A stretch of DNA of 64,000 bases from Lysobacteraceae bacterium (GCA_023657465.1 JAGTJX010000003.1:311889-375888); one strand, 5' to 3'; shown: positions 18,448 through 40,474, counted from the stretch's first letter. Numbers and translations: made by a program. Notes: generated by a model not told the origin, from the letters alone.

Positions 18448-19044
18448 ATGAAAGACAAATTATTGAAAATTAAGGCAAATATCCCGTTCTTAGTTGCGAT
18501 GAGCTTCTTCATTCTCGTTCGCTCTACATTTGCGAACTACTACATCGTTCCTAGTGGATCTATGGAACCCACGATTGCCATTGGAGATCGAATCTTCGTC
18601 AATCGTGTTGCTTATGACCTGAAGGTTCCACTCACAAACATCATTCTCAAAAACCTAGATGAACCCAAGCGTGGGGACATCGTTGTATTTGAATCACCCG
18701 TTAAACCTGGACTTACTCTGGTGAAACGTTTGGTTGCATTACCAGGAGATGATGTTCTGATCGAAAATGGATTCCTATTCATCAATGGAAAACCAGGAGA
18801 ATTCGAAAACCACGTCAAAAGAATTCCAGAATACTTTAGACCCGAGTCACGACACTTCATAGTACCCGAAGGTCAGTACTTTATGATGGGAGATAATCGT
18901 GACAACTCAGCTGATGGACGAGTGTTTGGTTTTGTTAAACGAGAGCTACTCATGGGCAGAGCTTCACGAGTGCTTTTCTCAGTCGATCTTCATCAGAATT
19001 TCTCTCGGATAGTGGCCTGGAATAGAATTGGCAAGAGTCTCTGA
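18448..19044 (+). CDS. lepB: signal peptidase I
   Basis: S26 motifs SGSMEPTI (Ser box), VKRLVALPGD and GDNRDNSADGR. Confidence 0.85.
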   Translation: MKDKLLKIKANIPFLVAMSFFILVRSTFANYYIVPSGSMEPTIAIGDRIFVNRVAYDLKVPLTNIILKNLDEPKRGDIVVFESPVKPGLTLVKRLVALPGDDVLIENGFLFINGKPGEFENHVKRIPEYFRPESRHFIVPEGQYFMMGDNRDNSADGRVFGFVKRELLMGRASRVLFSVDLHQNFSRIVAWNRIGKSL

Positions 19045-19655: not shown

Positions 19656-20290
19656 TTAGTATTGCTTATGTCTCTTTGGCAAAATCACAATGAACTTAGT
19701 ATACTGTGAACGTTTATCAATGGTGAGAGTGCCGTTATGATTATCAATCATCATCTCTTGGAGTTCTACTCTCCCTCGAATCGCATCCAGAGACTTCCCT
19801 AGCTCATGGGCAATACCAGCTGCAAGTTCACCCACACTTACCATTTTATCAGATTGGACTAGAATGGCCCGGTCACACTCTAATTGTTCTTCAATTAGTT
19901 TTCGCTCTGTGATGTCTACACGGATAGCAACATATTTAAACGGACGGTTCTCCTCACCTACAAAAGGTACGATGGTAGTAAATACCCAATAGAACGATCC
20001 ATCTTTAGTTTTATTTTTGATTTCACCTTTCTATACTTTTATTGAAGAAAAAGTCGTCCAGAGTTCTTTGAAAAAATCATGAGAGTGATGACCAGAATTG
20101 ACAATTCTGTGATTTGTTCTATGAGTTCATCTCTAGAATACTTCGAGATTTCACAGAATTTATCATTTACATAGGGAATAGTTCCTTTGGCATCCGTGAA
20201 TGCAACCATCGAAGAATAATCAAGTGCATGCCTCAAATCATCTACTTCTTTCAAGCTACGCTGTAATTGTTCTTCTACACTGAGGAACTA
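19656..20290 (-). pseudogene. degraded paralog of the PAS sensor histidine kinase at 39350..40474
   Basis: Fragments VAFTDAKGTIPYVNDKFCEISKYSRDELIEQ and KDGSFYWVFTTIVPF...VSVGELAAGIAHELGKSLDAIRGRVELQEMMI-DNHNGTLTIDKRSQYTKFIVILPK align to the intact kinase in three frames. There is an in-frame stop, and ~170 aa of the HATPase domain is deleted. Confidence 0.75.
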
Positions 20291-21118: not shown

Positions 21119-21936
21119 CTAAGAGTTCATAATAGTCGCTAAGGCCACGCTCAACATCGAAATTGTGTTTAGAAATCGAAATCTCCGCATTCAATAAGTT
21201 ATCATCACACGCAGACCACGAAGTGAGTGGAAGCGTAAGAATGAGTAATACCAGAAGTGGTATTGTACTTGAGTTTGATGCGCCTCAACGGTTCAAGCTG
21301 GTCCCCATTTCTAAAATTATACGGTAAACCCAAGAGCGAATGTACTGTTGGTTTTTTGACCAATGATTTGTTTCCTAATCTTGTTTCTAAATCCTTTGTT
21401 ATTCCTCGCAAACCGGATTTCTTGGTTTTTGCGATTTAATCTTTTGCTTTAACAAGTACCTTTCGAACTAAAGATTAGGGCTTATTACTATCAGTCCTTC
21501 TAGCCCCTGGTAAGAGACTTCATTCGAGTCTTGGGTATTTACCGCCTGTAGATTACGAAGCAGAAGTCTTGAAACTAAAACCCGCTGATCGTCCTGTTCA
21601 GAAGATCAGGGGAAAAGCTGTCTAGTTCGATGGGGTCATTCCACTATCCACCTATCAATCCTTCATCCGGGCTCTTTGTAAACTCAATCACGTTAACCCA
21701 GAGGTAAAGACAAAAATCATGGAGCGACTCGTTCATAGAATCGAAATCACGCGAGCTGGGTTCAATATTGCGTTTTATGCAGGGTCAACTGAAATTGAAC
21801 GAGGGCTAGACGAACTCCAGCCAAAAGATTTTTCTTTGACCGCTAGTTCGAATGTCTTGACTAATGGTGGCAACGTCGACTTTGGTTTGGATTCAGCCAC
21901 TTACACGGTTTTATAGCCAGATTTAGCCAAAGTCCA

Positions 21937-22887
21937 TTAGACAGATGGCAAAATCTGCTTTGCTTCAAAGAGATCAACGACTTCCTTCATTGCAGCCATA
22001 TCACTCGGTAATACCCTGAGGGTCTGAGTAGCACCTTTTTCATCTACACCAGCCAACCGGATATACTTCTGCATGGTCTTTAAATCAGCCCAGCCACAAA
22101 TCTTCATGACCCTTGCCGAAGCAACGTCATTGGCTAAAAGCTGGGTTGCAAAGCAAGCACGAAGCGTATGGAAACGGACAGAACGTACACCAATACCAAT
22201 GCAGAACTTCCGTAACATATTCGCCTGACGCCCAGCATCCCACTCATGGAATCGAGGAAGTACATGCTCCCTCTTTTCTGCACTGGCCTTTAGTTCTAAC
22301 AACAGAACCAAAAGCTCATCTGAAATAGGAACTGTTCTCCAGCATCCACTCTTAGTGCTCTTCACCACTCTCCGTCTAGAATGATAGGACTTGGAGACAG
22401 TGATTTTTCGATCTTGAAGGTTAACATCACTCCACAACAAAGCATGGAGTTCGCCATTCCTCATTCCCGTTAATAAAGCCATTACCCATATGGAATACCA
22501 AGGATGCTCAAGCTGCTTGGCACTGCGTAGTAGACACCGAATTTCATCAAGGTTCAATATTTCAGGAACCTTTTCAACCTTTCGATTGCTCAACGCTAGT
22601 CCTTGCACGGGAGCTTCACGCACACCTGGAATCAACCTTTGCTCGATTCCCCATCGGTAAACAAGATTGATGGTGTGCTTGACTTGTTTTCGATAACCGA
22701 GAGAACGACCAGCATTTTCCATCAATGAAAATACCTCTCTGGCATCTCCTATCGTCAGCATTGACGCTGGCCTTTCCAACCATGCTTTCGTCCAGCGACT
22801 TAAACTACTAACATGATCGGTGATGGTGTTCGGCTCATAAGAATATTTTGTTTTATCTCTTACGGCTTCTTCCCATCTCGCAATCAC
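21937..22887 (-). CDS. tyrosine-type site-specific integrase, core-binding and catalytic domains
   Basis: HTLRACFATQLL (HxxR) and KICGWADLKTMQKYIRL (catalytic Tyr) at the C-terminus. GTG start overlapping the upstream ORF stop (GTGA). Confidence 0.85.
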   Translation of the reverse strand: MIARWEEAVRDKTKYSYEPNTITDHVSSLSRWTKAWLERPASMLTIGDAREVFSLMENAGRSLGYRKQVKHTINLVYRWGIEQRLIPGVREAPVQGLALSNRKVEKVPEILNLDEIRCLLRSAKQLEHPWYSIWVMALLTGMRNGELHALLWSDVNLQDRKITVSKSYHSRRRVVKSTKSGCWRTVPISDELLVLLLELKASAEKREHVLPRFHEWDAGRQANMLRKFCIGIGVRSVRFHTLRACFATQLLANDVASARVMKICGWADLKTMQKYIRLAGVDEKGATQTLRVLPSDMAAMKEVVDLFEAKQILPSV

Positions 22888-23096
22888 GGCCTCCCAGGTA
22901 TGCCCTGGGAGGCGCGCTTGACTAACTTTTCTGTGATCTCTCTTGTGAGTTTTTTTTCTTCAGCGAGAGCTGCTTTCTCAGATTCAAATCCAGCAACCAT
23001 TTTTTGTTCTCTGATTGCGGGATTCTCTTTACTTCGGATATTAAGATAAATTTTCCAAAGTTTTTTTCCATCTTTTTCATAACTAGATACAGACAT
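22884..23096 (-). CDS. integrase N-terminal arm-type DNA-binding domain, separated from the catalytic ORF by a frame change
   Basis: MSVSSYEKDGKKLWKIYLNIRSK resembles P4-type integrase arm-binding N-termini. 70 + 316 aa adds up to a typical integrase length. Confidence 0.5.
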   Translation of the reverse strand: MSVSSYEKDGKKLWKIYLNIRSKENPAIREQKMVAGFESEKAALAEEKKLTREITEKLVKRASQGIPGRP

Positions 23097-23371
23097 CAGA
23101 TACCTCTTTCTTGAGAGCTACCCAACTGTTCCTCTAAAGTGGATTTTCGGAAGTAAAGGCGACGCCTCCATTTGCGGCAACGGACTTGTCCGCGACTGAC
23201 CGCTGTATGAAGTGCGCCCACCGATGGCAACCGAAGATACTTCGCAGCCTCGACTGAGTTCATCCAAACCAAATTGTCAAAGATCGGTTCTGAAGAATTA
23301 TTATTTTCTTCAGATTCATTGTTTAAAATCATATCATCTTTCTGTAAAAAATCAGCAGAAAACAAGGGCAT
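23096..23371 (-). CDS. excisionase/AlpA-type HTH (HTH_17) DNA-binding protein
   Basis: MNSVEAAKYLRLPSVGALHTAVSRGQV pattern. Confidence 0.55.
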   Translation of the reverse strand: MPLFSADFLQKDDMILNNESEENNNSSEPIFDNLVWMNSVEAAKYLRLPSVGALHTAVSRGQVRCRKWRRRLYFRKSTLEEQLGSSQERGI

Positions 23372-23691
23372 TACGCGGTGTTTTCATTAATTTTATTTGC
23401 GTTATTTTTTTTGCGCTCGGCTCGATGCTCAAGCTGTGAAATATATTCTTCACCGTAAAGCTCCACCAAGCGCTCTGCGCGCCTTGTGAGTAATTTCTTT
23501 CGGTGGGATTGAGAAACGAGCCTCTTCGACAACCGATCAAAATCCGCCTCACTGAGAGCTTTACAGGCATCAACTAAAAGAGTGTTGACCAAAGGGCTGA
23601 TTTTCTTTCCGCTAAATTCATTCTTATTTTTAATCTGTCCTCGCACATGGTCAAGCGCAATTAATGTCTCTGGGTTAAGGGCTACTTTCAT
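23371..23691 (-). CDS. hypothetical protein
   Basis: 106-aa basic ORF in the element operon with no motif. Confidence 0.4.
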   Translation of the reverse strand: MKVALNPETLIALDHVRGQIKNKNEFSGKKISPLVNTLLVDACKALSEADFDRLSKRLVSQSHRKKLLTRRAERLVELYGEEYISQLEHRAERKKNNANKINENTA

Positions 23692-24008
23692 TTCTTTTTG
23701 GCCTCTTTTTCTTGAGGGATTCCAAGAAGACTAACGTCTCCTTCCAGAATCCATTCTCGATGAGCCTCTATGAGACGATTATTTTCAATCTTCTCGGGAA
23801 TCATGACAGCTCGAAGCTGCGGAGCCGATATTTCGGGAACTACTGCGCCTGCTTTAGCACCCGTCTCAAATACTACGGACTCACGTACAAGCTGACGGCT
23901 GAGGCGTGCAGCCTCATCAGGAGGTACAACCTCCTGCGAACGAGTATGAGCACAACCTGTAAACGCAAGTGCGCAAAATGGAATCAATACTAAGCTAATA
24001 ATCTTCAT
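23688..24008 (-). CDS. lipoprotein (possible TraV-like transfer lipoprotein)
   Basis: Lipobox ALAFTGC|AH. The TraV analogy rests on position only. Confidence 0.45.
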   Translation of the reverse strand: MKIISLVLIPFCALAFTGCAHTRSQEVVPPDEAARLSRQLVRESVVFETGAKAGAVVPEISAPQLRAVMIPEKIENNRLIEAHREWILEGDVSLLGIPQEKEAKKK

Positions 24009-24844
24009 AATAATCCTTTGTGTGTATCAATTGAATCAACCTCACTATGTGGGGGTGATAAGGGACTGCTCAAAGAGCAAAAATCCTTATAAAACAACGG
24101 AACTGCATTCACTACGCCTTGAGATATTGTCGCAATTTTATCTAACGACTCTCCAGGATATTTGTGCTGAATGCCAAAGTACCTAGAGTCAAGAGATTTC
24201 AAGCCCTCAAAAGTAACGATGAGGATACGTTTCTCAAACTCAGGTGGCAGTTTACCGATCTTCTCTTGATATGCGGTCAGTATGGTTTTGTTTCTCACTA
24301 CCACCAATAATCCTGCACAAATCATTTCCTTCAAGAACGTAGCTCTATATTTTTCGATCAGCTCATCCATGAGGTAATCGTTCTTTTGTGTACTCTCTAC
24401 CTCAACTGCCAATTCAAACTTTCCGTCACTGTTTGAAATCTGAATCAATCCATCAGGAATTTTCTCATGGCAGAACTGCTTAATCTCAAAAGAACCAATT
24501 TCGTGTTCAGTTGCGATCAAAGTAATGAATGAATATCTGGACAATACCAAAAATGTTTCGGTTACTGCAATAGCATGAGCTGCGTTGCGATGATGGATTC
24601 CAGAATTCCCAATATGCGATGTTGAAAGCACCTGATTTCGAAGTTTTTTAGTAGCCGCAAAAATATTGAAAGGTGCAGACGGGAAATAAGGTTTATCTAC
24701 AAATGCTGTCGTCCTAAGTTCTTTCAACATTCTATAAACAGTTGCTCTCGTACATCTGCCAGCGCATGAGTCGATAACCTGATCTAAAGTCATGATGCCA
24801 AAACGAACTAATTGGTGGGACAGAAAGGCGTTATGTTTTCTCAT
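24005..24844 (-). CDS. replication-relaxation family protein (Replic_Relax-like, N-terminal wHTH)
   Basis: The N-terminal GIMTLDQVIDSCAGRCTRATVYRMLKELRTTAFV winged-helix pattern and ~280 aa length are typical of PF13814 proteins of conjugative plasmids. Confidence 0.45.
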   Translation of the reverse strand: MRKHNAFLSHQLVRFGIMTLDQVIDSCAGRCTRATVYRMLKELRTTAFVDKPYFPSAPFNIFAATKKLRNQVLSTSHIGNSGIHHRNAAHAIAVTETFLVLSRYSFITLIATEHEIGSFEIKQFCHEKIPDGLIQISNSDGKFELAVEVESTQKNDYLMDELIEKYRATFLKEMICAGLLVVVRNKTILTAYQEKIGKLPPEFEKRILIVTFEGLKSLDSRYFGIQHKYPGESLDKIATISQGVVNAVPLFYKDFCSLSSPLSPPHSEVDSIDTHKGLL

Positions 24845-26202
24845 TTCAACTGTACCTTTTTTGAAGGACGGAAAGACTGGTTCACTCCAACTAATGAACG
24901 GCTATATCCTGCCTGAATGAGCTTTTCAGTATGTTGTTTAATCATTTCTTCTATCTGTATGTTCTTAATGAGAGGGGCTTGAATGATCTCATTGCTTGAT
25001 CGCTGATACACAGCCCTACCAGGATGAGAACCTAATGTGGATGCTGTCATGTCACCGATTACCAATGTTGAAGCCGAAACCGATGGAACAGAAAAGCAAA
25101 TCCTAGTCGGTAAATTGTCTTTGCTCTGCATATCAATAGTGCTTTTGTCTGGTCGTTGTGTGCCTAAGACCAAATGAATGCCAGTGAATCTCGCCAACCT
25201 AGCAAGAGTCGCTATTCTCTCCTGAAGTCCTGACTTGGCAGATTTCTCTAATGCCTTTTTTGATAGTTCAGCCAATTCATCAACAACGATTACTACAGGT
25301 CCTACAGGAAATCCTTGCAGTGCCTTTTCTTGTTCAAGATCTTTCAATAAAAATTCATTCCAATTAGTTTTACTCTTCTGAATCAAATATTCTTTTCTTT
25401 TTTCAAAAAGCTCTAAACACTGATCCAGTAATAACTCTGCATCTGAATAAGATGTCACCATGCTGAAGTTTGGAGCTTTACGAAATGATTGGAAGTCAAT
25501 GCCTCCTTTCATGTCGATTAAACACAAATACGATCCACGCGTTTGTGTCAAAACCGTAGTCATGAATTGCTTGATGAACTGAGTTTTACCTGACCCCGTT
25601 TGACCAGCCACAAGCATATGAATCATTTTCGTAAGTGACAGTTTTTCTACGACTTCATCTCCATGCCCAATAAAAAACTCTCCCTGAGAAAGTGAGTTTA
25701 GGTCTAGTTCGTGAAATGCTACAGAATCTGGAATATTAGTTCGTTTTAAAACGACTTCAATTTCTGGAACCGTCGCTGATGGCTTTGAAATGGATTTAAT
25801 GGGCTGACTGAGCCTCGACGAAAGCTGTAAAATATGTTTTTCAAAGTCACTGGCATCATATCCAGCCGCTCTGATTCGGATTCGATCATTCTTAAGCGGG
25901 TACTTTCCTCGTACGATCCACGTAGGCTCTCCATAGCCCTTAGAGTAATCGAGTCCAATCGTCTCAAATGCTTTGTCAATTGGGCGAACGACTGAGCCAA
26001 TCGCAATGAAACCAACTAATAGATTGGCAAGTACAATCATTCCAATGCTCATGGGGTGCAGAGCTTCAAATAGGATGACATCTAAAGCCGTAGCCAATAT
26101 CCAAAAGTATATATACTCTCGGTTCACCCTCGCTTGCGCAATGAACACAGCGCCGTATCTACGAAGTCTTTTATAAAAAGTATTTTCAGTAGATTGAGTC
26201 AT
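24841..26202 (-). CDS. FtsK/SpoIIIE-family DNA-translocase ATPase (TcpA/TraB-like coupling protein)
   Basis: N-terminal TM helices, Walker A LVAGQTGSGKTQF and Walker B VVIVVDELAEL. Confidence 0.7.
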   Translation of the reverse strand: MTQSTENTFYKRLRRYGAVFIAQARVNREYIYFWILATALDVILFEALHPMSIGMIVLANLLVGFIAIGSVVRPIDKAFETIGLDYSKGYGEPTWIVRGKYPLKNDRIRIRAAGYDASDFEKHILQLSSRLSQPIKSISKPSATVPEIEVVLKRTNIPDSVAFHELDLNSLSQGEFFIGHGDEVVEKLSLTKMIHMLVAGQTGSGKTQFIKQFMTTVLTQTRGSYLCLIDMKGGIDFQSFRKAPNFSMVTSYSDAELLLDQCLELFEKRKEYLIQKSKTNWNEFLLKDLEQEKALQGFPVGPVVIVVDELAELSKKALEKSAKSGLQERIATLARLARFTGIHLVLGTQRPDKSTIDMQSKDNLPTRICFSVPSVSASTLVIGDMTASTLGSHPGRAVYQRSSNEIIQAPLIKNIQIEEMIKQHTEKLIQAGYSRSLVGVNQSFRPSKKVQLK

Positions 26203-27095
26203 CGGCTACCCTTCGCGCTACGAATTTTAACAAAAACGGATGCACCTGATTTCAAACTTAGCTCTGGTTGAGTTTCCTTAAGATCCTTAGTGGCTTCTGT
26301 CGAAAGGCTCATAGATACTTGTTGATTGGTTTCAATAGAAGCACGCTGAAGCTCTTTTGATGTGGCAGAATTATCTGTCAACCCATTCATGACCTTTGAC
26401 ATGGCGATCTGGTCGGCTGCAACGATTCCTTTATTGAGTGCAACGCCCAGTAATCTTGTCAACAATCCAGAGGAGTAATCGGCCTCTATGCCTACGGTTT
26501 TAAGATCAGAGTCAATTGCGTAACCCGTAATTGGGTATGCTCTTCCTTCTTTATTTAAAAGCTCAGAAAAACTGAAATTCAAACGCTTCTTATTGATATT
26601 CGTAGAGAGAATTCCACGAATTTGTCCACCAACAATCTCAGAGATATCCAACACTGCTGTGTGATCTTCCGAGACGAACTGATTCAACCGAATTTGCACT
26701 GGACTCTCTGGAGCAAGTGAAGAAATATCACCCAATAGAATTCCTTCAAAAATAACTTCGAGTCCATCTAACAACGGTCTCTCAATAACGGAGGGAGTAT
26801 TACTTGTACGTGTAGCGCTCGAGGATTTCGAACTCCAGCTAAACGCCTTGGCTAGATCAAACCCGAATCCTTTGGCCTCACTCTTTGAAAGAGATGTTTT
26901 CTGCAAGAATTCAACCGAAGGTTTTATAGAGTCACTTTGGATTGATTGTACAATCACGACATTCTGTTCAGTGAAATATGGTTTTAATTTAAAAAAACCA
27001 ACTAAAGAAACAAGAAGTATACAGGCTAACAGTATCATTTCTCTTTTAACTTCGGGTTTGTCTGTCCATTTGAATTTTTCGATTATTGTTTTCAT
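26199..27095 (-). CDS. VirB10/TrbI-like protein (tentative)
   Basis: N-terminal TM, Ser-rich linker and C-terminal beta-rich domain. Assigned by size and position only, so weak. Confidence 0.3.
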   Translation of the reverse strand: MKTIIEKFKWTDKPEVKREMILLACILLVSLVGFFKLKPYFTEQNVVIVQSIQSDSIKPSVEFLQKTSLSKSEAKGFGFDLAKAFSWSSKSSSATRTSNTPSVIERPLLDGLEVIFEGILLGDISSLAPESPVQIRLNQFVSEDHTAVLDISEIVGGQIRGILSTNINKKRLNFSFSELLNKEGRAYPITGYAIDSDLKTVGIEADYSSGLLTRLLGVALNKGIVAADQIAMSKVMNGLTDNSATSKELQRASIETNQQVSMSLSTEATKDLKETQPELSLKSGASVFVKIRSAKGSR

Positions 27096-27543
27096 CCGTT
27101 CTCCTTTCGTTTTTGTAGGTGTCATGCAAAAGATTGATTCTACGTTTTGAATGAGAGGATGTAATTTCTACAACATCATCATAGTTGTATTTGTCAGCCA
27201 TATGCAAAAGTACGACATAACGTCCTGCTTTGGTGTAGATGATTAGATTTCCAGGTTCATGAGATAAAGGACGGATACTTAAATCCTTTCCCAGAAAATT
27301 GATTTCCAGAGATTCTGGAGAACCTGGAACGACTTTCTCAGGCCGTGAAAGAAAAGGTAAAATAGTCACTCTTTTCAAAGCTACTCTCACGATTGCAGAT
27401 TTTCCTGGTGACAACTCTACTTTTCTCATAACGCCTGCATGACTTTTTTCTGTTACAGAAACGAAAAGCATCAGACTCAGAATGATTGAGGGATAAAGAA
27501 TGAAAAAAAATCGCTTAATGTCCTTCATTTGCAGTCTCCTCAA
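27046..27543 (-). CDS. VirB9/TrbG-like secreted protein (tentative)
   Basis: Signal peptide followed by a beta-rich domain. The assignment is positional. Confidence 0.3.
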   Translation of the reverse strand: MRRLQMKDIKRFFFILYPSIILSLMLFVSVTEKSHAGVMRKVELSPGKSAIVRVALKRVTILPFLSRPEKVVPGSPESLEINFLGKDLSIRPLSHEPGNLIIYTKAGRYVVLLHMADKYNYDDVVEITSSHSKRRINLLHDTYKNERRTDENNNRKIQMDRQTRS

Positions 27544-28099
27544 ATTCCTCGACCCCCACTACCTGAAGTCCATAGGGATTTTCAGGACTGACGGAAGACT
27601 CTCGATACGTTAATCGAACAATGAGTGGAGTAGCTGCTGCCATTGTCCCAATTCTCAAGACTCGACTAATATGCGCTACAATCTTCTTCTCTGAGTTTGA
27701 AAACCCAAACCCTTCAAAAGTAAAAAAACATTTGGCTTTCTGGTTTTGAGCTAGTGACTGAAAGGAAGAAATTGAAGCTTTGAGCTTCTTAAAAACAGCT
27801 TCGTCGGTAAGTGTTTTAAGTAAAGCTTCTCTCTTTGAAAAAGTGTCATTATTCCACTCAAAGCGGCTTATTAAATATTGTTTTGTGAATGCTTCTATTC
27901 TGAAAACAGATACTTCCCAAGGCTTTGTCTTCAACATTCGGTGTATCGAATCGTCATCCACAATGACAAAAGGTCTGTTTGTAAGGATAACTGGTATAAA
28001 AACAATAGCCATTCCCAGTAATGCACAAAGAGAGTAAATAATTTTCTGAGTCTTCCTGGCAGACTCTTGTAAAGTTTCAATTGGCTTAAGGTATTCCAT
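27515..28099 (-). CDS. VirB8/TraE-like bitopic membrane protein (tentative)
   Basis: Single N-terminal TM (IVFIPVILT) plus a ~150 aa periplasmic domain; size typical of VirB8/TraE. Confidence 0.3.
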   Translation of the reverse strand: MEYLKPIETLQESARKTQKIIYSLCALLGMAIVFIPVILTNRPFVIVDDDSIHRMLKTKPWEVSVFRIEAFTKQYLISRFEWNNDTFSKREALLKTLTDEAVFKKLKASISSFQSLAQNQKAKCFFTFEGFGFSNSEKKIVAHISRVLRIGTMAAATPLIVRLTYRESSVSPENPYGLQVVGVEEFEETANEGH

Positions 28100-28111
28100 A
28101 TTTTATTCTTT

Positions 28112-29011
28112 CTATTTTTTTGAAATGTTTGGTTTCGATGGTTTTCGGAAAGGCAACTTTTTCATTGCAGTTCTTGCAACAGACCCAAGACCTGTTGTTG
28201 CCATGCTCTTGGCTCCGCCATAAGCTGTTTGCATTTTTGAGATAGGAATTCCTGATAATGAAGCTCCCATTCCTGAAGTCATAGTTTGCAAAGCACTTGC
28301 ACCTGCTGAAGCTAATTGACCGTTTAGAAAGGAATGAACTAGCATTGGCGTGCTTGCCAAAAGTCCGGCCACGGCGAAGTTAAGAACCGCTGTGTCGAAC
28401 CACTGCGACAGGTTTGCTGGTGTTTCTGAAAAGCCAATCCCAAGCAACAAACGAGCTAAGATAACCCAGATAGGTTTCCATAGTGAAAGCTCAAGCATTC
28501 CCATGAAAATTCCTTTCGGAATCGCATGGAATGTTGGAAATAGACATCCTAGTAAGGCAATAGGACCTAAAATATGCAATAGGTTCCAAAGAGAGAGGTG
28601 CAAAATATCCAGAAATCGTTTTACTACCGCAAGTACAAGAAACGAAAGCGTGGAAATAATTGAAAGTCCGATCTGCCCTAACTTTAACCAATTACTTGTG
28701 CCAGAATCTTTGATTTCAGTAGCTTTGTCGCCGATCTTTGAGAAAATCTGAATAAGGGCGTCATCTCCACCAAATGTTTGGATCAAATACATTTCTAATC
28801 CTTGAATGGATGAGGAAATTTGCATGAACCCGACTAAAAGAGCTATTGCAATAATAAGTCGTCGAAATAAACCTTCGATCTTTGACCCAGAAATTTCACC
28901 ACTAAAATAAATCGCCATCATTGCTAACAAGAAGGCAACTGGCAAAGCTGCCCAGAAAACCGAAGAGCTAGCTTGAAATAATTCACGTGTTGTTGAGTTA
29001 AGGTCAATCAT
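28112..29011 (-). CDS. VirB6/TrbL-like polytopic inner-membrane protein
   Basis: ~6 TM helices and a Gly/Ser/Ala-rich C-terminus; 299 aa. Confidence 0.5.
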   Translation of the reverse strand: MIDLNSTTRELFQASSSVFWAALPVAFLLAMMAIYFSGEISGSKIEGLFRRLIIAIALLVGFMQISSSIQGLEMYLIQTFGGDDALIQIFSKIGDKATEIKDSGTSNWLKLGQIGLSIISTLSFLVLAVVKRFLDILHLSLWNLLHILGPIALLGCLFPTFHAIPKGIFMGMLELSLWKPIWVILARLLLGIGFSETPANLSQWFDTAVLNFAVAGLLASTPMLVHSFLNGQLASAGASALQTMTSGMGASLSGIPISKMQTAYGGAKSMATTGLGSVARTAMKKLPFRKPSKPNISKK

Positions 29012-29718
29012 TGAGAACCTCCGATAGAATTCAGAGAACTCATTCCGTTTCTTTTCATGTCTCTATCAATCAGCGAATGAGTTTCAACGAAAGATTCAAA
29101 TTCTGCGTTTTCTTTGGTTGAATCTTGAATTTTTTTTGTGGAAGATATTTCTAACTGTTTTGCTTCCAAACGATTTCCATGGCTTACAGCATGAAGTAAA
29201 ACTCCCATGGTTTCTGCCGTCAACCTCGTAGCGCTGACTTGACTGGCAACTAGTGCTGCTGTCTTTACTTTGTTTCCCTTTTCATCAAGAAAATTAGAGT
29301 AGTCGAACGCATCTTGACTGAGAAAAAGACCCTCGACACCTGTACGATAATTGTTCTGAGTGACTTTAGGGGATCGTTCACTGACCTCGCCATACACTCG
29401 CCTTGCTTCCCAAACAGCTCGGTCAATCTGCTTGGCTCCTTCATAAACTTGAGGTGGGAGTGAAATATGTGCGGTCTCAGCTAGATTCAAGACTTCCTTC
29501 ACGCCACGATTCATTTCCTCCAGAATACTTACCGTTTCCTTTGCCTTGCCTAGCATTTGAGAAATAGCCTGAACTTGGGAAATGGTTTGTGTAAGAATAT
29601 TAATCAGGATTGGAATATCCATGCCAAAAAAATCTGCGCGAACTTCTTGGGGTTTAATTAAGAATCCGCTCATGAATATGCAGCATATACTGATCCAAGC
29701 TGCGATTTTTTTCTTCAT
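29008..29718 (-). CDS. VirB5/TrbJ-like secreted coiled-coil protein (tentative)
   Basis: Signal peptide followed by a helical 200-aa domain. Positional assignment only. Confidence 0.35.
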   Translation of the reverse strand: MKKKIAAWISICCIFMSGFLIKPQEVRADFFGMDIPILINILTQTISQVQAISQMLGKAKETVSILEEMNRGVKEVLNLAETAHISLPPQVYEGAKQIDRAVWEARRVYGEVSERSPKVTQNNYRTGVEGLFLSQDAFDYSNFLDEKGNKVKTAALVASQVSATRLTAETMGVLLHAVSHGNRLEAKQLEISSTKKIQDSTKENAEFESFVETHSLIDRDMKRNGMSSLNSIGGSQ

Positions 29719-31151
29719 GCTGCTTCTCCTTCTGCTCCGTGAGGGTAATGAGATGCCATGTGAAGCATCAAATCACTCAAGGATAGATTTTGATTTTTTT
29801 CTGAAACTTCTTTGAGCAATGAATTGTCAGGTGGATGTGTCGTTGAAAGCCAATACTCAAGCGGAGTTGGTCTATAAATTAAAGTGCCTTTGATCGACTC
29901 AGATTGCAGAAAGAATTCTGAATAAACACCTCTGACCTGTGACAGAGAAAAAGCATCTTTAGTTTCAACTGCATTGAGCTTCAAGTCATCTTTAAGTGTT
30001 TTTTCATTGCCTCGTTGCCTGAGAATAAAGCGATTAGGTGCATTGGCTAAGATCCCATCTCCGATTTCATCATTCTTCAAGTCTTTTACAGTCTGAGAAA
30101 TGGCTATAGCAGCACTAGAAAACTTTCTCATTTGTCGAAAACAATCTTCAACCCAACGAGCCGATGAATTCGCTCGTCCATCTCCTGATGAGCGAATCAT
30201 AGTATGTGCTTCATCTACAACAATGAGCGAACGTTGTGGAAAGCGCTTTTTAACTTCCCTCCAAATACAATCCATAACGACCAACATCGCCGCGCGAAGC
30301 AAATCAGGGTATCTCTGACATTCCTTCATTTCAAAATGTAGATGAGTTCCATCTAATAAAACATTTGTCTCCCCATCAAAAAGTAATCCGTAAGGATGCG
30401 GGTTACACCAGAGCGAAAGAAGTTTGGACAAACGCTTCATCTCAGAGTGTTGGCTACTCTCTAAGTGTTCGCGAAACTGTGAAAGACGTTTTGGCACATT
30501 GCTTTCGTAGAAAGTTAATATTTCCGTTTCAAGCAATGCTTTTTCAAGCTTCCCTAGGGTTCCTTGATCACCTGTGATTTCCTCTAAAAGAGCAGTAAGG
30601 AATTTAATTTTTTCTGGATCAGGGTGAGTTCCATTTTTAGGAAGGTCGAAGGGATTGATGCGTGTTCCTCCGTTCGGAGAAAGATCAATACTAGCACCTC
30701 CCAAGTAATCGATTGTGCGCTTGAAACTATTTCCAACATCGATAACAAAAGCAGACGGACGATCTTTGCTTTCACCTGCTGCCATTCCTAGAATCAATCC
30801 ACAGGCCAAAGTACTCTTACCTGAACCTGTTGATCCGATCAAAATGGCATTCGCACTCGGGCTTTTTTCAAAGAGCGAATATCCCATGATGCTCTGGTAG
30901 GGAGTTTCAAAAAGTATCTCAGCACTTTCGTGCCCATGGCCAACTCCAAACAATGGGAGAAAATCACAGAGGTGGCTTGCTAGTATTCGCTTCGGTCTAG
31001 TTATAAAAGTAGGTGCAAAAGGAAGGATTGAGAAGAATACAGGATATGCACCCACAGTTTCTTCAAACCATTGACAACCTGAACCAATTTTTGAGGTTTC
31101 ATCCAAGAGATGTTCAAAAGAATTATTCATGATCTGCACCCTCAAAAGTAA
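29715..31151 (-). CDS. VirB4/TrbE/CagE-family ATPase, C-terminal ATPase portion (separate frame from the N-terminal portion)
   Basis: Walker A IGSTGSGKSTLA and Walker B LIVVDEAHTMI. The frame is open from 31151, and the first start codon in that frame is a TTG at 31145. Confidence 0.8.
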   Translation of the reverse strand, partial: LLLRVQIMNNSFEHLLDETSKIGSGCQWFEETVGAYPVFFSILPFAPTFITRPKRILASHLCDFLPLFGVGHGHESAEILFETPYQSIMGYSLFEKSPSANAILIGSTGSGKSTLACGLILGMAAGESKDRPSAFVIDVGNSFKRTIDYLGGASIDLSPNGGTRINPFDLPKNGTHPDPEKIKFLTALLEEITGDQGTLGKLEKALLETEILTFYESNVPKRLSQFREHLESSQHSEMKRLSKLLSLWCNPHPYGLLFDGETNVLLDGTHLHFEMKECQRYPDLLRAAMLVVMDCIWREVKKRFPQRSLIVVDEAHTMIRSSGDGRANSSARWVEDCFRQMRKFSSAAIAISQTVKDLKNDEIGDGILANAPNRFILRQRGNEKTLKDDLKLNAVETKDAFSLSQVRGVYSEFFLQSESIKGTLIYRPTPLEYWLSTTHPPDNSLLKEVSEKNQNLSLSDLMLHMASHYPHGAEGEAA

Positions 31152-32199
31152 TTACATGAAAAGAAGTCGCTAGCAGCTTGTCACCAGAGGAAATCATTGC
31201 TGATAGCGTATCTTCAACATCCTGAAGCTGGCTTTCTGCATATAGATTTCTAACAGTATTTCCCGATGCCATCCCTTGAGCTAATCTCTGTTTGCGTGAA
31301 AGACGCTCCCTTTCTTCGGTTTGCGGTAGTACCAACAAGGTCATAACAAGTGAAAATGGCTTTCCTAAAACCGTTAAGGAACTCATCAAGCAGGGAAAAG
31401 AACTCTCTGGAAGAGTTTTTAAAGTTCCAATTTTTACCTTCGCTCTTCCTAGATTCAAGCCGCTTCTCGACTCAACAAGCTCAGATAAGCAAAAGTTTTC
31501 TGATAAAGCCTGATTTTTACTTTCAGTTAAGTTTAGAAAAATTTTCCTATCAGGATTTAAAAAGCGAAAAATAATTTCCATCACATCGCCTTTTTTAGCT
31601 TCATCAGTTTCAAACCCCAATGCATCTAAACCAGATTTTAATGCTTCATAAACTGCCATTGTTTCTTCACGGATCGCTTGAGAAGTCTTCAATTGCGTTG
31701 AATGATTTCTATTCGACGCAATAAAGGAAAATGCGCCCAGTTGCTTACCTGTCCGTATCTTCACTGAGGGTGGCACTCGTAGCGTCATGTAAATCTTCGT
31801 TTGGTGCAAAAATCCATCACTCCAGAGTTTCTTCAATTCATTCAGCTTCATTTCAAACAGTCTTTGGTTTGCAGAACCTTCTTCTTTGACCGCTTCATGT
31901 GAATGAGTTTTTTTCCAGTTAGTAAATGCCTGATCGGAACTTTCATTGGTTCTTTCTCGATTCAGTAGGATTTGAACTAAAGTACCTTCTGGAATGAGAC
32001 CTAAAACCGAAAGCAAACCCGATCTCATGACTTCAAAATCATCATCGGTATAAGACATGCAGTTTTTTGGAACTAATGAGAATGTTTTGGTAGCACTCCC
32101 ATCCTTTAACCAAAGCAGTCCTGTTTCTTCCTCAAAAGAAACGTAGGGCATAAGATCGTGAAGCAGGTGTTCGCCTGGTCTTTTGTCGATTGCGTTCAT
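31123..32199 (-). CDS. VirB4/TrbE/CagE-family ATPase, N-terminal domain
   Basis: CagE_TrbE_VirB-like N-terminal pattern (LLWLKDGSATKTFSL...). The combined length of 358 + ~476 aa equals a normal VirB4. The frame break lies within 31125-31151 at a TTTT run. Confidence 0.75.
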   Translation of the reverse strand: MNAIDKRPGEHLLHDLMPYVSFEEETGLLWLKDGSATKTFSLVPKNCMSYTDDDFEVMRSGLLSVLGLIPEGTLVQILLNRERTNESSDQAFTNWKKTHSHEAVKEEGSANQRLFEMKLNELKKLWSDGFLHQTKIYMTLRVPPSVKIRTGKQLGAFSFIASNRNHSTQLKTSQAIREETMAVYEALKSGLDALGFETDEAKKGDVMEIIFRFLNPDRKIFLNLTESKNQALSENFCLSELVESRSGLNLGRAKVKIGTLKTLPESSFPCLMSSLTVLGKPFSLVMTLLVLPQTEERERLSRKQRLAQGMASGNTVRNLYAESQLQDVEDTLSAMISSGDKLLATSFHVITFEGADHE

Positions 32200-32485
32200 T
32201 TTTTTCCTCCAAACTAAATGGGCTAATTAATGTTATTCGTGATCGAAATAACTGAAGTAGATAGTGAATCCCGTGCTGAGGTGGGTGTGTTCGATTCAAA
32301 ATTAATAAGGTGATTCCAACGCCAGCCGAAAGCAGCAGTGAAATAAGTGCAGAGAATGGCACTCCTCTCAGCAGCGGACTGATGATGGCATACGCAAGGG
32401 CACAGGCTGCAAGCTCCATTGGCGATAACCCCATGATCCTTGCAGGTTCTTCCAGATTCCTCGGAATCTTTTGTTGTAAGGACAT
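32132..32485 (-). CDS. VirB3/TrbD-like small membrane protein (tentative)
   Basis: ~115 aa from MSLQQK, with a hydrophobic hairpin ALAYAIISPLL...LISLLLSAGVGITLLIL. It overlaps the VirB4 start, as is common for VirB3-VirB4 pairs. Confidence 0.4.
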   Translation of the reverse strand: MSLQQKIPRNLEEPARIMGLSPMELAACALAYAIISPLLRGVPFSALISLLLSAGVGITLLILNRTHPPQHGIHYLLQLFRSRITLISPFSLEEKNERNRQKTRRTPASRSYALRFF

Positions 32486-32766
32486 TAAGCTGCCACTCGG
32501 TGCTGTAGGAATGACAAGATGCTTGGCGCAGTAAAAGAAATCACAGTGCCTACGCAACTCCAAAACAACATTCTTTTTGCGCTTTCGTCACCCATTGCTA
32601 ACTTGAAACCAGCAAAAATAATCCCACCAATACAAAATGTGGGTGCCAACACATCTAAGATTGCCGATTGCAAGTTGCTCATCATGGACTCGACGCTTGC
32701 AAAAGCAGAAATTGGGGTTAGTAGAACAGTCCAAATCAAAGGACTCAGTTTTTTATTTTTTTTCAT
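32485..32766 (-). CDS. VirB2/TrbC pilin-like protein
   Basis: 93 aa with a signal peptide plus two hydrophobic helices (TFCIGGIIFAGFKLAMG, LFWSCVGTVISF). Confidence 0.5.
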   Translation of the reverse strand: MKKNKKLSPLIWTVLLTPISAFASVESMMSNLQSAILDVLAPTFCIGGIIFAGFKLAMGDESAKRMLFWSCVGTVISFTAPSILSFLQHRVAA

Positions 32767-33000
32767 TTTTATTCTCCAATATTTTTTCTATTCGGATTTC
32801 TCTCAGCCACTCTTTTAGTGAAAAATCATCAAACTGAGTTTCCGAGTCGTTTAACTCTCGATTGGTCTGATTCGTACCAATCACAGTAAAGGCAGAGTCG
32901 AACTTGGTTACAGGCTTCATGAAGTCTCCATCCACATCGAGGGCAAGTATTTTGAATTCGGTTTAACCAATTAAATTTGTTCATATGTGCTTTCTGTGAA

Positions 33001-33192
33001 TTACGAAGCACGAGGCAGCTGAAATTGCATGGACTCACTGAGGGCTTCTTTTGCCCATTGTGGAATCAATCGTTGATCTCGATTTTCAATAGTTGGACTA
33101 TAGTTGCAATCAGCGCAATGGCTGTGGGTTGCTAGCACTTCGTAAGCATGGGTACTGCAACGGGGACATTCTAAGAAATTAACCTGGTTCAT
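33001..33192 (-). CDS. small zinc-ribbon protein (CPRC...CADC)
   Basis: 63 aa with two CxxC pairs. It is the first ORF of the transfer operon. A second CxxC ORF (32829..33038) overlaps it in another frame. Confidence 0.4.
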   Translation of the reverse strand: MNQVNFLECPRCSTHAYEVLATHSHCADCNYSPTIENRDQRLIPQWAKEALSESMQFQLPRAS

Positions 33193-33204
33193 TGTTTACT
33201 CTCA

Positions 33205-33228
33205 TTCTGAGGGGTAATTCCCTCAGAA
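33205..33228. promoter_or_regulatory. perfect 9-bp-arm hairpin/operator-like palindrome TTCTGAGGG-GTAATT-CCCTCAGAA immediately upstream of the transfer operon
   Basis: It ends 13 nt upstream of the ATG at 33192. Confidence 0.4.
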
Positions 33229-33304
33229 CTATAAATTGCAAGCCAATGCCAATTCTGATGAGACTCGTGAGACTGGTAAACAGTTGAAATGTATGATTTT
33301 TGAA

Positions 33305-33320
33305 ATTGAGACGAGTCTCA
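33305..33320. promoter_or_regulatory. palindromic motif TTGAGAC-GA-GTCTCAA (copy 1 of 2)
   Basis: The same arms recur at 53852-53869. Both copies lie ~100 bp upstream of minus-strand genes at the edges of accessory blocks. Confidence 0.4.
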
Positions 33321-33568
33321 AGAAAGAAATCGAATCTCACTCAGTATCAAATGAGTTTCATTGAAGCCTATGAATCTCAGAGTTGTATCAATATTTAAAA
33401 AATATTAAAAATGATACAAACCTGAGATTTCTTGGAGAAACGGGTGAGACAGCTAATCATCACTTCAAATAGCAATAACTCGCTAAGTAGCAAATAACTG
33501 TAGGTAAAACCCATAAAAAACAAATGACACCACCGCCACAAGAAATAAGGTGAGTTTCATAGACAGCC

Positions 33569-34023: not shown

Positions 34024-35472
34024 TTATTCTGTTTCTTTGTTTTTATCTTCTACAAGATCAAGCTCTTCATCAGTCACATGCTGCTCAACAAAGCCATACT
34101 CTCTTTCCTTGCGATAAAGAGTTCTTCGTGTGAATCCAAGAATCTGCGCAGCCTGTTCTTTTCTTCCGCCTGTCTTCTCTAATATGACTTGCATGTATCT
34201 ACGCTCGAGCTGCTCAACAGTAGGAAAATCAGTGATTGCAGAACCAAAGAACTCTTCAGCATTTGTCACACCAGGCGTAGGAATATCGCCTTCACTAATC
34301 ATACTATCAGTAGCAAGCACAACAGCACGCTCAACCACGTTTTCAAGCTCTCTTACGTTTCCATCCCATCTAAAGCTCATGAGCTTATTCATGGCGCGCT
34401 TACTAAAACCTTTCACACGTAAATTATTGGTTGCAGAGTACTTTTGCAAAAAATGTTCTGCCAAGAGAGGCACATCTTCTTTTCTCTGTCTCAGGGGAGG
34501 AATAACAATAGGAATGACGCTGAGACGGTAATAGAGATCTTCTCTGAATCGTCCATCCTTCATTGCCGATTTAAGATCTTTATGGGTAGCAGCGATGATC
34601 CTGACATCTACATCCTTGGTCATGTTTTCACCCACCGCACGGACTTTCTTTTCTTGAATCACGCGGAGTAGCTTTGTTTGAAGGAGTACATTCATGTCCC
34701 CAATTTCATCTAGAAAGAGAGTTCCTCCTTCAGCTTCTTCAAACAAACCTCTTTTACGTTGAATCGCTCCTGTAAAAGATCCTTTTGCATGGCCGAACAA
34801 CTCAGACTCTAAAAGAGTTTCTGGGATAGCTGTACAATTGATAGCAACAAAAGGTTTTTTCGATCGTGGCCCGCTTTCATGAATAGCGCGCGCTACCATT
34901 TCTTTTCCGGTGCCACTTTCTCCCATAATAAGAATATTCGCAGTTGCTTGTGAAACTCTGGAGACCAGGTCAAAGACTGATTTCATCTCAGGACTTTTGC
35001 CTACAATTCCATTCATTGACCAAGAACGTTTCACGACTTGCCTGAGTGCTGTGTTATCTCTCTGAAGCTTACGATGCTCCATCGCGCGAAGCACGTTGAC
35101 CGACATCTCAGCTAGTTTGAATGGTTTTACAATGTAATGAAACGCTCCACGCCTCATTGCTTCGATCGCTGTCTCAATACTTCCAAAAGCTGTGATGAGA
35201 ATCACGGGAATTTCTGATCTGATTTCTTGTAGGCGAGAAGTGAATTCTAGGCCGCTGATCTCTGGCATGTTGATATCAGAGATAATCAAGTCGACATCTC
35301 CATTCTCTTTTTCAATGGATAGTGCGCCTCCTGGCGAAAGGTTCTGAATCGCATCGACTGCGGAAGGAAATACGTGCACATCATATCCTTCGCTACTGAG
35401 GAAGTCCTTGAGTAAGGAGCGCATTTCCTTTTCATCGTCGACCACTACAATTCGACCTTTAAAATCACTCAT
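34024..35472 (-). CDS. sigma-54-dependent response regulator (NtrC family: REC + AAA+ + Fis HTH)
   Basis: Receiver D-box, GAFHYIVKPF, Walker [25 protein letters not shown] and a C-terminal HTH. Confidence 0.9.
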   Translation of the reverse strand: MSDFKGRIVVVDDEKEMRSLLKDFLSSEGYDVHVFPSAVDAIQNLSPGGALSIEKENGDVDLIISDINMPEISGLEFTSRLQEIRSEIPVILITAFGSIETAIEAMRRGAFHYIVKPFKLAEMSVNVLRAMEHRKLQRDNTALRQVVKRSWSMNGIVGKSPEMKSVFDLVSRVSQATANILIMGESGTGKEMVARAIHESGPRSKKPFVAINCTAIPETLLESELFGHAKGSFTGAIQRKRGLFEEAEGGTLFLDEIGDMNVLLQTKLLRVIQEKKVRAVGENMTKDVDVRIIAATHKDLKSAMKDGRFREDLYYRLSVIPIVIPPLRQRKEDVPLLAEHFLQKYSATNNLRVKGFSKRAMNKLMSFRWDGNVRELENVVERAVVLATDSMISEGDIPTPGVTNAEEFFGSAITDFPTVEQLERRYMQVILEKTGGRKEQAAQILGFTRRTLYRKEREYGFVEQHVTDEELDLVEDKNKETE

Positions 35473-39349: not shown

Positions 39350-40474
39350 TCATTTAGGAAGGGTGATTACAAATCGAGTATTGGGTGAAGCCTGATCTAG
39401 ATAAATTTGGCCGTTATGTTTTTCAATGATTGTTCTGGAAATACTTAATCCCAAACCCGAACCCTTTCCAGCGGGCTTTGTTGTAAAAAAAGGAAGGAGA
39501 ATTTTTTCAGCGATTTCCTGCGGGATGCCTTTTCCGCTGTCAGTTACAGCTATCACTATGCATGAGTCCTGATCTAATACTTGGATTTTAATCCATTTTT
39601 CAGAAAATCCTACAATAGCGTCTCTAGCATTGCCGACTAAATTCACCAGAATTTGACTGATCTGAGTTTCTTGGCAATTGACTTCGATCCGGTCATCAAC
39701 CTCAGAGACATCTACGAGAATATTGTTCTTCTGGAGACCTTCATTTGCAAAACTTAAAACATCTTTCACTAAAAGACCTACTGACACTTTTTGAAAAGGA
39801 TCATGAGTGCCATCTCGCGACAATGCTCGCATTCCACGAATGATCCGAGTCATTCGCTCGGTCAGCTCTTTTACTGTCCCAATACTTCTCAAAATTTCTT
39901 CAGACGTGGACTTTCCTGATAAAATTTGCATTTCAAGAAACTCCATCCTGCCGCTGATTGCAGCTAATGGATTTCCTAACTCATGTGCGGTGCCTGCCGC
40001 TAATTCACCCAAGCTCGCCATTTTCTCAGCATGCAACAGAGCTACGCGCTGATCTTGCGCCTGTTCTTCTATCTGTTTTAGTTCGGTAATATCCGTTCGA
40101 ATCGCAACATACTGAATAGGCTTTCCTGATGAATCCATAAAAGGAACAATCGTGGTAAAGACCCAATAGAAGGTTCCATCTTTAGCTTTATTCTTGAGCT
40201 CACCTTTCCATACTTTTCCTGCAGAAATTGTTCTCCAAAGATTGCTAAAAAACTCTTTATGATGATGAGCTGAATTGATTAGACGATGAGTTTTTCCAAT
40301 CAACTCCTCTCTCGAATATTTTGAAATCTCGCAAAATTTGTCATTCACATACGTGATGACTCCATTTGCGTCTGTAAAAACGATGATGGAGGATTGATCC
40401 AAAGCACGACGTAACTCGTCCGCATCTTTTTCGCTTCTGATTAGTCGTTCTTCGACGCTCATTTGCTTACCCAT
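39350..40474 (-). CDS. cytoplasmic PAS-domain sensor histidine kinase
   Basis: PAS (FTDANGVITYVNDKF), H-box LGELAAGTAHELGNPL, and HATPase motifs (NLVGNARDA, DSGKGIP, GSGLGLSIS). Confidence 0.85.
   Translation of the reverse strand: MGKQMSVEERLIRSEKDADELRRALDQSSIIVFTDANGVITYVNDKFCEISKYSREELIGKTHRLINSAHHHKEFFSNLWRTISAGKVWKGELKNKAKDGTFYWVFTTIVPFMDSSGKPIQYVAIRTDITELKQIEEQAQDQRVALLHAEKMASLGELAAGTAHELGNPLAAISGRMEFLEMQILSGKSTSEEILRSIGTVKELTERMTRIIRGMRALSRDGTHDPFQKVSVGLLVKDVLSFANEGLQKNNILVDVSEVDDRIEVNCQETQISQILVNLVGNARDAIVGFSEKWIKIQVLDQDSCIVIAVTDSGKGIPQEIAEKILLPFFTTKPAGKGSGLGLSISRTIIEKHNGQIYLDQASPNTRFVITLPK

Follow-up and report, generated by a model that had tools for sequence, protein, structure and literature searches.

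Can the conjugation machine of a diderm bacterium be served by a DNA motor of the FtsK/TcpA kind in the place of VirD4? The question is raised by a block of genes at 21937-33192 of a 64,000-nucleotide stretch of DNA (the window; GCA_023657465.1, JAGTJX010000003.1:311889-375888) deposited as that of a Lysobacteraceae bacterium. According to the 2025 nomenclature review (PMC12857230), proteins of the VirD4 family are the couplers of all Gram-negative type IV secretion systems (T4SSs), and TcpA is limited to a subset of the mating-pair formation class MPF_FA. An initial annotation made from the window alone had described a co-directional minus-strand block of about 11 kb resembling an integrative and conjugative element (ICE), in which an integrase and an excisionase accompany a minimal T4SS of VirB-like genes and an ATPase of the FtsK/SpoIIIE type. 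Each of these points was borne out: calling of open reading frames (ORFs) gave an unbroken minus-strand run across 21937-33192, profile searches recovered the named components, and the integrated element measures 11.3-11.7 kb. All features of the element described below lie on this strand, and the base composition of the block is the same as that of its flanks. We consider it likely that we are dealing with one copy of an ICE specific to a lineage, the Bdellovibrionota.

The block belongs to a family whose members share their gene identities and synteny and lie in differing genomic contexts. From the head of the operon the conserved order runs zinc ribbon, zinc ribbon, pilin, (a small gene), VirB3-like, VirB4, 236 aa, ~300 aa, 196 aa, 140-230 aa, ~300 aa, FtsK-like, ~280 aa, lipoprotein, ~108 aa, HTH_17 and integrase, as drawn from gene tables and tblastn over 18 family loci, some of them partial contigs (loci compared: L001-L006, L025-L028, L030, L032, L036-L038 and L040-L043). 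The FtsK-like protein, of ~453 aa, has about 50 relatives at 39-83% identity, followed by a gap before the next matches at E 1e-24, and the named relatives of the element are metagenome-assembled genomes (MAGs) of Bacteriovoracaceae, Oligoflexia and Bdellovibrionota FG-1. Genes outside the block vary by locus, the contexts in different genomes being unrelated, and a tRNA gene adjoins the integrase end in three loci (Gln in L030, Ser in L028 and Asp in L040) and lies nearby in a fourth (Arg in L006). The varied flanks and the tRNA adjacency together give the picture of a mobile integrating element and not of a conserved chromosomal operon, the alternative that the initial annotation had held open. 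The MAG from which the window comes is labelled Xanthomonadaceae at NCBI and has a G+C content of ~42%; as all named relatives of the element are Bdellovibrionota, this label may be wrong.

Directly upstream of the relaxase-like gene, at the usual place of VirD4, the element encodes an FtsK/TcpA-type ATPase (24841-26202; PF01580 FtsK_SpoIIIE, 5e-18), a putative membrane-anchored, hexameric coupling protein and DNA motor with two predicted N-terminal transmembrane (TM) helices and no FtsK gamma domain. Genes for coupling proteins usually sit directly upstream of the relaxase gene (PMC12857230), and this ATPase is the sole candidate for that role in the element; profile searches of the window matched no ORF of the element to VirD4. 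When a profile built from 20 family members was searched against all PDB sequences, the best match was TcpA of pCW3 (6o1w-6o1z; E 3e-41, 145 bits, residues 117-412), with FtsK at E 1e-24 and 90 bits, EccC/EssC weaker, and no match to TrwB/VirD4. The best plasmid matches were tcpA genes belonging to Tcp loci annotated in C. perfringens and Enterocloster. Single-sequence BLAST returned near-equal scores (110 versus 92-105 bits). In a neighbor-joining tree the clade of Bdellovibrionota motors falls with FtsK and TcpA and well away from VirD4, and it unites with TcpA in only 9 of 100 resamplings, for which reason we call the motor FtsK/TcpA-type without assigning it formally to the TcpA family. 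As judged from its sequence, a VirD4 identity is clearly excluded. The nearest relatives of the motor outside the family do not adjoin T4SS genes.

Does the element also encode a relaxase whose substrate such a motor could take up? The adjoining gene (24005-24844) specifies a 279-aa Replic_Relax or MOB_C-like protein, a putative relaxase in which a winged helix at the N-terminus is followed by a PD-(D/E)XK nuclease domain at the C-terminus. The initial annotation had recognized a replication-relaxation protein here and stated that no MOB relaxase was present. The first of these statements finds support in the family, with PF13814 matched by three of eight orthologues (best 1e-7), and does not extend to a Pfam match in the window protein itself, which has none. 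The orthologue alignment contains an invariant E...PD...ExE motif (E115, P130-D131, E148 and E150) and an invariant H90, the fold is a winged helix-turn-helix plus a FokI/N.BspD6I-like, nuclease-like domain, and the segment AVEVESTQK weakly matches AFEVERTVKS of the CloDF13 mob region (shared A-x-E-V-E-x-T-x-K). Replic_Relax was placed in the PD-(D/E)XK superfamily by Steczkiewicz et al. (PMC3424549), and PF13814 is treated as the MobC (MOB_C) relaxase superfamily by Coluzzi et al. (PMC5357655). Because the motif and fold are those of PD-(D/E)XK proteins, PF13814 is found in orthologues and PF13814 corresponds to MOB_C, the element can be credited with a candidate relaxase of a recognized non-HUH kind, and the second statement is not supported. 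Known MOB_C relaxases, TraX of pAD1 and MobC of CloDF13, similarly combine a PD-(D/E)XK restriction-endonuclease-like core with a DNA-binding domain; they differ in working with VirD4-type couplers and not with FtsK/TcpA-type ones (PMC5357655), and the window protein lies under the Pfam detection threshold.

The combination of an FtsK-like protein with Replic_Relax had been regarded as typical of Gram-positive MPF-FATA or Tcp-like and actinomycete systems, a view at odds with the literature. There the partners described for TcpA are MPF_FA and either MOB_T or TcpM, and those described for MOB_C are VirD4-type couplers (PMC5357655, PMC12857230); in streptococcal integrative and mobilizable elements, TcpA was never found alongside MobC (Coluzzi et al., PMC5357655). 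The pairing found here is therefore unusual and not typical. TcpA homologues were reported only in Firmicutes (Guglielmini et al., PMC3548315), and the "t4cp2" of papers on Gram-negative bacteria is the name of a VirD4 profile and does not denote TcpA. Searches of the open-access literature turned up no precedent for a Bdellovibrionota ICE or for TcpA in Gram-negatives, and no description of this element family.

The channel into which the motor would feed is of the diderm type, giving the mixed architecture that had been proposed for the locus. Profiles or orthologues uphold the earlier assignments of VirB2, VirB4, VirB6, VirB8 and VirB10, with those of VirB3 and VirB5 resting on position and topology and that of VirB9 on weak matches. 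The pilin (32485-32766) matches TrbC/VirB2 above the Pfam cut-off (PF04956, 2.5e-10). VirB4 is encoded as two genes, an N-terminal half (31123-32199; PF11130 TraC_F_IV, 1e-15) and a C-terminal ATPase half of the TraC-F-type/TraG P-loop kind (29715-31130; PF19044, 1e-19; TIGR02746 TraC-F-type, 7e-52, model positions 364-789), coupled through a stop/start overlap, ATGAATAA, that was read directly at 31123-31130. The same split occurs in L002, L025, L030 and L036, and a single fused gene of 831-837 aa is found in L026, L027 and L006; as the split characterizes one subclade and fusion others, it is a tolerated, inherited state and not a pseudogene. The VirB10/TrbI-like protein (26199-27125; PF03743, 3e-4) has an N-terminal TM helix, and all eight of its orthologues match TrbI (PF03743; best 1.8e-7). 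The 299-aa VirB6/TrbL-like polytopic membrane protein (28112-29011) has at least five TM segments and no direct Pfam match; phmmer found 128 matches among 1.84 billion representatives, and 26 of 89 full-length relatives match PF04610 TrbL/VirB6 (best 8e-10). The VirB8 homologue (27515-28099) is predicted to be bitopic.

Three further genes occupy VirB positions. At 32132-32485 lies a VirB3/TraL-like small membrane protein, assigned by position and TM hairpin, with a conserved RNLEEPxRIxGLxPxEL motif. The genes listed initially are all present, with the corrections that this one most likely starts at 32485 and not at 32563, and that VirB4 and the integrase each consist of two ORFs. The candidate for VirB5 by position is a secreted 236-aa protein with a signal peptide (29008-29718) kept in all loci at 46-79% identity. 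The VirB9-like secreted protein (27046-27543) is a short form of 140-165 aa also found in L001, L032 and L036; elsewhere a long form of 224-230 aa (for example L002 8436-9110) carries a C-terminal domain with four conserved cysteines that is absent from the short form. We considered whether the short gene is a lesion of this copy and rejected this, the form being a trait of the subclade it shares with those three loci. The predicted topologies suit a VirB machine, with VirB8 and VirB10 bitopic, VirB6 polytopic and the VirB9-like protein secreted. Alignment with hhalign to single annotated VirB/Tra proteins gave concordant top ranks for VirB9, VirB10 and VirB6 at probabilities all below 11%, and family profiles of the VirB8-, VirB9- and VirB10-like proteins found nothing useful in the PDB. 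In agreement with the initial annotation, no VirB11 or VirB1 was matched in the window, and profile searches and gene tables revealed neither in any related locus.

To which class does this machine belong? Of the curated VirB4 models, none of which comes near its cut-off, F-type TraC (TIGR02746) ranks first with 176 bits where 567 are required, and the Gram-positive CD1110 model scores below both TraC-F and VirB4_CagE. The set expected of MPF_T is incomplete, with VirB6, VirB8 and VirB10 present, VirB9 weak, VirB3 assigned by position and topology, and no VirB11. The locus does not fit MPF_F, its TraC-type VirB4 being under the cut-off and no F-specific TraF/H/N/U/W family being matched, nor does it fit a monoderm MPF_FA or Tcp-like system, as it has a VirB2 pilin and VirB10/TrbI. 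The element departs from the VirB/VirD4 systems of MPF_T (A. tumefaciens VirB, R388 Trw and pKM101 Tra) in lacking VirB11, VirB1 and VirD4, in its split VirB4 nearest to the F-type TraC model, and in a relaxase candidate that is not HUH. With the Tcp locus of the C. perfringens pCW3 family (TcpA, TcpM, TcpC, TcpF and TcpH) it shares a coupling ATPase of the FtsK type that has short TM helices at the N-terminus, lacks the gamma domain and is encoded beside the relaxase, as well as homologues of VirB4, VirB6 and VirB8 and the lack of VirD4 and VirB11. That locus, however, is a plasmid-borne monoderm MPF_FA system without VirB2 pilin, VirB9 or VirB10; the affinities of TcpM, its relaxase, are with tyrosine recombinases, and TcpA is only ~29% identical to the motor described here.

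Other known elements share parts of the plan. Tn916, ICEBs1, ICESt3 and the actinomycete ICEs (AICEs) are likewise small integrase/excisionase elements with an FtsK-related motor (TcpA-like ConQ, or TraB). All of them are elements of monoderms and are unlike ours in having either a MOB_T relaxase and a T4SS of the MPF_FA class or, where TraB transfers double-stranded DNA (dsDNA), no T4SS whatever; the present element has a diderm channel with pilin and VirB10. The strongest VirB4 match among those listed from the plasmid collection was to pYRE of Myxococcus stipitatus (NZ_CP102771; E 3e-31, 25% identity), where a similar run of small and medium genes surrounds VirB4; pYRE differs in having a VirD4-type coupler with a TraM-recognition domain, and in BLASTP against its T4SS the VirB4 match was the sole one detectable.

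From homology and gene order we infer a mechanism in which each functional step, the location of the origin of transfer (oriT) and the form of DNA moved, single-stranded (ssDNA) or dsDNA, are predictions. The tyrosine integrase and the HTH_17 excisionase would cut the element out as a circle, after which the winged-helix/PD-(D/E)XK protein would recognize and nick oriT, possibly in the leader at 33193-33568. The FtsK/TcpA-type hexameric ATPase, in VirD4's stead, would then feed the DNA into an envelope-spanning T4SS made of the VirB2 pilin, the VirB3-like protein, two-piece VirB4, the VirB5-like protein, VirB6, VirB8, the VirB9-like protein, VirB10 and perhaps a small lipoprotein, with no VirB11 or VirB1. 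We hold with about even confidence the wider claim that the motor is the sole coupler of a diderm VirB-type machine working with a MOB_C-like nuclease, a combination absent from current classifications, and that these elements are a separate compact ICE lineage confined to predatory Bdellovibrionota that arose through independent recruitment of an FtsK-like protein or an ancient transfer from monoderms.

Several observations weigh against the identification of the block as an ICE of this design. All the data are MAGs and metagenome contigs. The att direct repeats that the initial annotation would have sought in the flanks were not found: exact and short-word comparisons between the flanks of the window, L002, L025, L026, L030 and L040 gave none of at least 12 nt and no credible short ones at the ends of any locus examined, so that no repeat marks the far end of the element. 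Of the channel proteins, the VirB9-like one has weak signals (TIGR02781, 0.0037; CagX, 0.021 in one orthologue; VirB9 top-ranked by hhalign at E 0.003), the protein in the VirB5 position has no family match in six orthologues, and the VirB3-like one lacks profile support, with TIGR02762 TraL at only 0.072. Finally, the tyrosine integrase (21937-23096; PF00589, 7e-20) is split by a 1-nt frameshift near 22899-22905 into a catalytic part (21937-22887) and an N-terminal ORF of 70 aa (22884-23096). Reading the sequence directly places the break at cagggcatacc, outside any long homopolymer; tblastn assigns frame -3 to integrase residues 1-66 and frame -2 to residues 65-381, the frame 3' of the break reads TWEAVIARWE, the same as in relatives, and the orthologues are single proteins of 383-387 aa.

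The broken integrase bears on the possibility that a once conjugative copy has become fixed in the chromosome and is decaying with its neighbourhood, devoid of function, an explanation we take seriously while leaning somewhat against it. The adjoining 19.4-21.9 kb contains only gene remnants, as the initial annotation had noted, including a 34-residue PAS fragment, a HisKA fragment and other broken ORFs, and is a plausible candidate for an old insertion site. The rest of the window has intact genes, which speaks against general assembly errors, and the missing att repeats would also fit such a remnant. Against this, the other 15 genes of the element are full length by comparison with its closest relatives, L032 and L036 (63-88% identical), the short VirB9-like form is common to three relatives and thus no private lesion, and one indel in the consensus sequence of a MAG could itself be erroneous. 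Because the integrase is frameshifted and decayed genes lie alongside, the sequence suggests that this copy is probably stranded or immobilized, unless the frameshift is an assembly error.

A second alternative accepts transfer and changes what is transferred, with the motor pumping duplex DNA like Streptomyces TraB and the PD-(D/E)XK protein acting as a DNA-binding or DNA-cleaving recognition factor and not as a classical nicking relaxase. The placement of the motor with FtsK and TcpA within its superfamily, well away from VirD4, would suit this, as would the resemblance of the TcpA structure to FtsK, which prompted a dsDNA suggestion, and the failure to detect any covalent DNA intermediate of MOB_C relaxases (both PMC12857230). 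We nevertheless regard it as improbable, given that the motor has no FtsK gamma domain, that the element encodes a full VirB-type channel with a pilin, all studied channels of which type pass ssDNA (PMC12857230), and that Guglielmini et al. count conjugation by TcpA systems as transfer of ssDNA (PMC3548315). Both this alternative and our own mechanism treat the T4SS as a device for transferring the element. That it serves instead for DNA uptake or release or for effector delivery in predation, with the integrase merely marking a genomic island, is very improbable in spite of the absence of VirB11, VirB1 and VirD4 (ComB-type and effector T4SSs lacking VirB11 or VirD4 also exist) and of the predatory habit of the hosts of the named relatives, for in every locus the T4SS genes stand together, without intervening cargo, with those for an integrase, an excisionase, an FtsK-type motor and a nuclease of a relaxase family, and F-type conjugation systems also do without VirB11.

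If the reading we prefer, a Bdellovibrionota ICE in which an FtsK/TcpA-type motor takes the place of VirD4, is true, the coupler and relaxase modules of conjugation would be swappable across the monoderm/diderm divide. A minimal system of ~11 kb without VirB11 would offer a model for the tasks required of a coupling ATPase at a diderm channel, and the element would represent, as predicted, a self-transmissible type in predatory bacteria, about whose routes of gene exchange little is known.

Where does such an element begin and end? On the integrase side, a conserved non-coding segment 3' of the integrase stop (TTTGGCTAAATCTGGCTA...GTTGCCACCATT; 21857-21936) is the inferred end and a candidate att or arm region. 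It is kept in L001, L002, L025, L026 and L032, and similarity to L032 and L001 runs ~75 nt beyond the integrase stop, ending after ...CCACCATT at ~21857-21864. Neither ARAGORN nor a permissive Rfam scan found a tRNA or tRNA remnant beside the window integrase, and copies of the tRNA 3' end sought in L030, L006, L028 and L040 gave chance-level matches only. An imperfect palindrome (CAGATTTTGCCA...TGGCTAAATCTG; 21918-21957) spans the integrase stop and is a candidate terminator or recombinase binding site. A 15-nt exact direct repeat, ACGGTTTTATAGCCA, occurs at 1546-1560 and 21905-21919 (E 0.009) with no extended similarity around it, its second copy falling inside the conserved segment.

At the opposite end, three small overlapping ORFs form the operon head (32753-33192): zinc ribbons Zn1 (33001-33192) and Zn2 (32829-33038), both of the C4 type with CxxC...CxxC motifs, and a 60-aa ORF (32753-32935). 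The initial annotation had pointed out zinc-ribbon ORFs and an upstream hairpin, and both are real, the head ORFs being conserved in L002, L006, L025, L026, L030, L036 and L040 (tblastx, tblastn) and the hairpin being a perfect 9-nt inverted repeat (33205-33213/33220-33228). Conservation with relatives stops at 33192, nothing past the zinc-ribbon genes being conserved, and the far end must therefore lie in or beyond the 375-bp leader. This repeat-rich leader (33193-33568), a candidate promoter/operator and oriT, also holds four copies of GAGAYTC within 33260-33378 and a 23-nt imperfect inverted repeat (33373-33395/33407-33429). The leader motif TGGCATTGGCTTGCA (33237-33251, minus) is one instance of a sigma-54-like TGGCA(C/T)-N4-TTGC(A/T) sequence 5' of the first zinc-ribbon gene that recurs at L002 2417, at L025 2653 and in the L026 and L006 leaders. 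A canonical sigma-54 promoter was considered for this site and rejected; the three elements that keep the motif have a spacer one base shorter than the canonical one, and in two others the spacer is N14.

Between the integrase and the relaxase-like gene lie three small genes. The excisionase-like HTH_17 protein of the AlpA/MerR type (23096-23371) matches PF12728 at 2e-4, under the Pfam cut-off, and its orthologues carry clean PF12728 matches. A conserved 106-aa helical protein without a family match (23371-23691) has positional orthologues of 104-110 aa in all loci, of which tblastn picks up only the closest; purely as conjecture, it may have an accessory role in the relaxosome. The conserved small lipoprotein (23688-24008; 106 aa) has a signal peptide, no family match and 54-77% identity across loci, with the lipobox cysteine kept in eight of eight orthologues, and is a VirB7-like candidate by kind and not by homology.

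An NtrC-type response regulator lies just 5' of the element in four loci (window 34024-35472, L026 1-591, L030 691-2244 and L040 157-1704). The L030 and L040 regulators occupy the same upstream position, are 53% identical to each other and lack GAFTGA; from their sequences they are probably element cargo, and the match between them suggests that elements of that subclade extend past the compared flanks. As a part of the element, the window regulator was considered and rejected, being 31-35% identical to the L026, L030 and L040 copies and having a kinase of its own within a cluster of stress genes; with its GSFTGA motif, it is probably a host gene. To the right of the element, an intact PAS-HisKA-HATPase kinase (39350-40474) is clustered with Dps, CBS, two Usp proteins and a beta-CASP RNase, and the sensor kinase fragments to the left of the element lie at 19656-19844 and 20039-20254. 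A short S26 signal peptidase (198 aa; PF10502, 4e-44) is encoded at 18448-19044, 2.8 kb from the integrase end, with none such beside related elements; S26-type peptidases process pilins in some conjugation systems. Related loci have additions of their own, with an extra 425-aa gene between the VirB6-like and VirB8 genes in L026 (6490-7767) and, 3' of the integrase, ThiF/Multi_ubiq genes in L027 (12461-14913) and a HEPN/nucleotidyltransferase pair in L025 (16757-17553).

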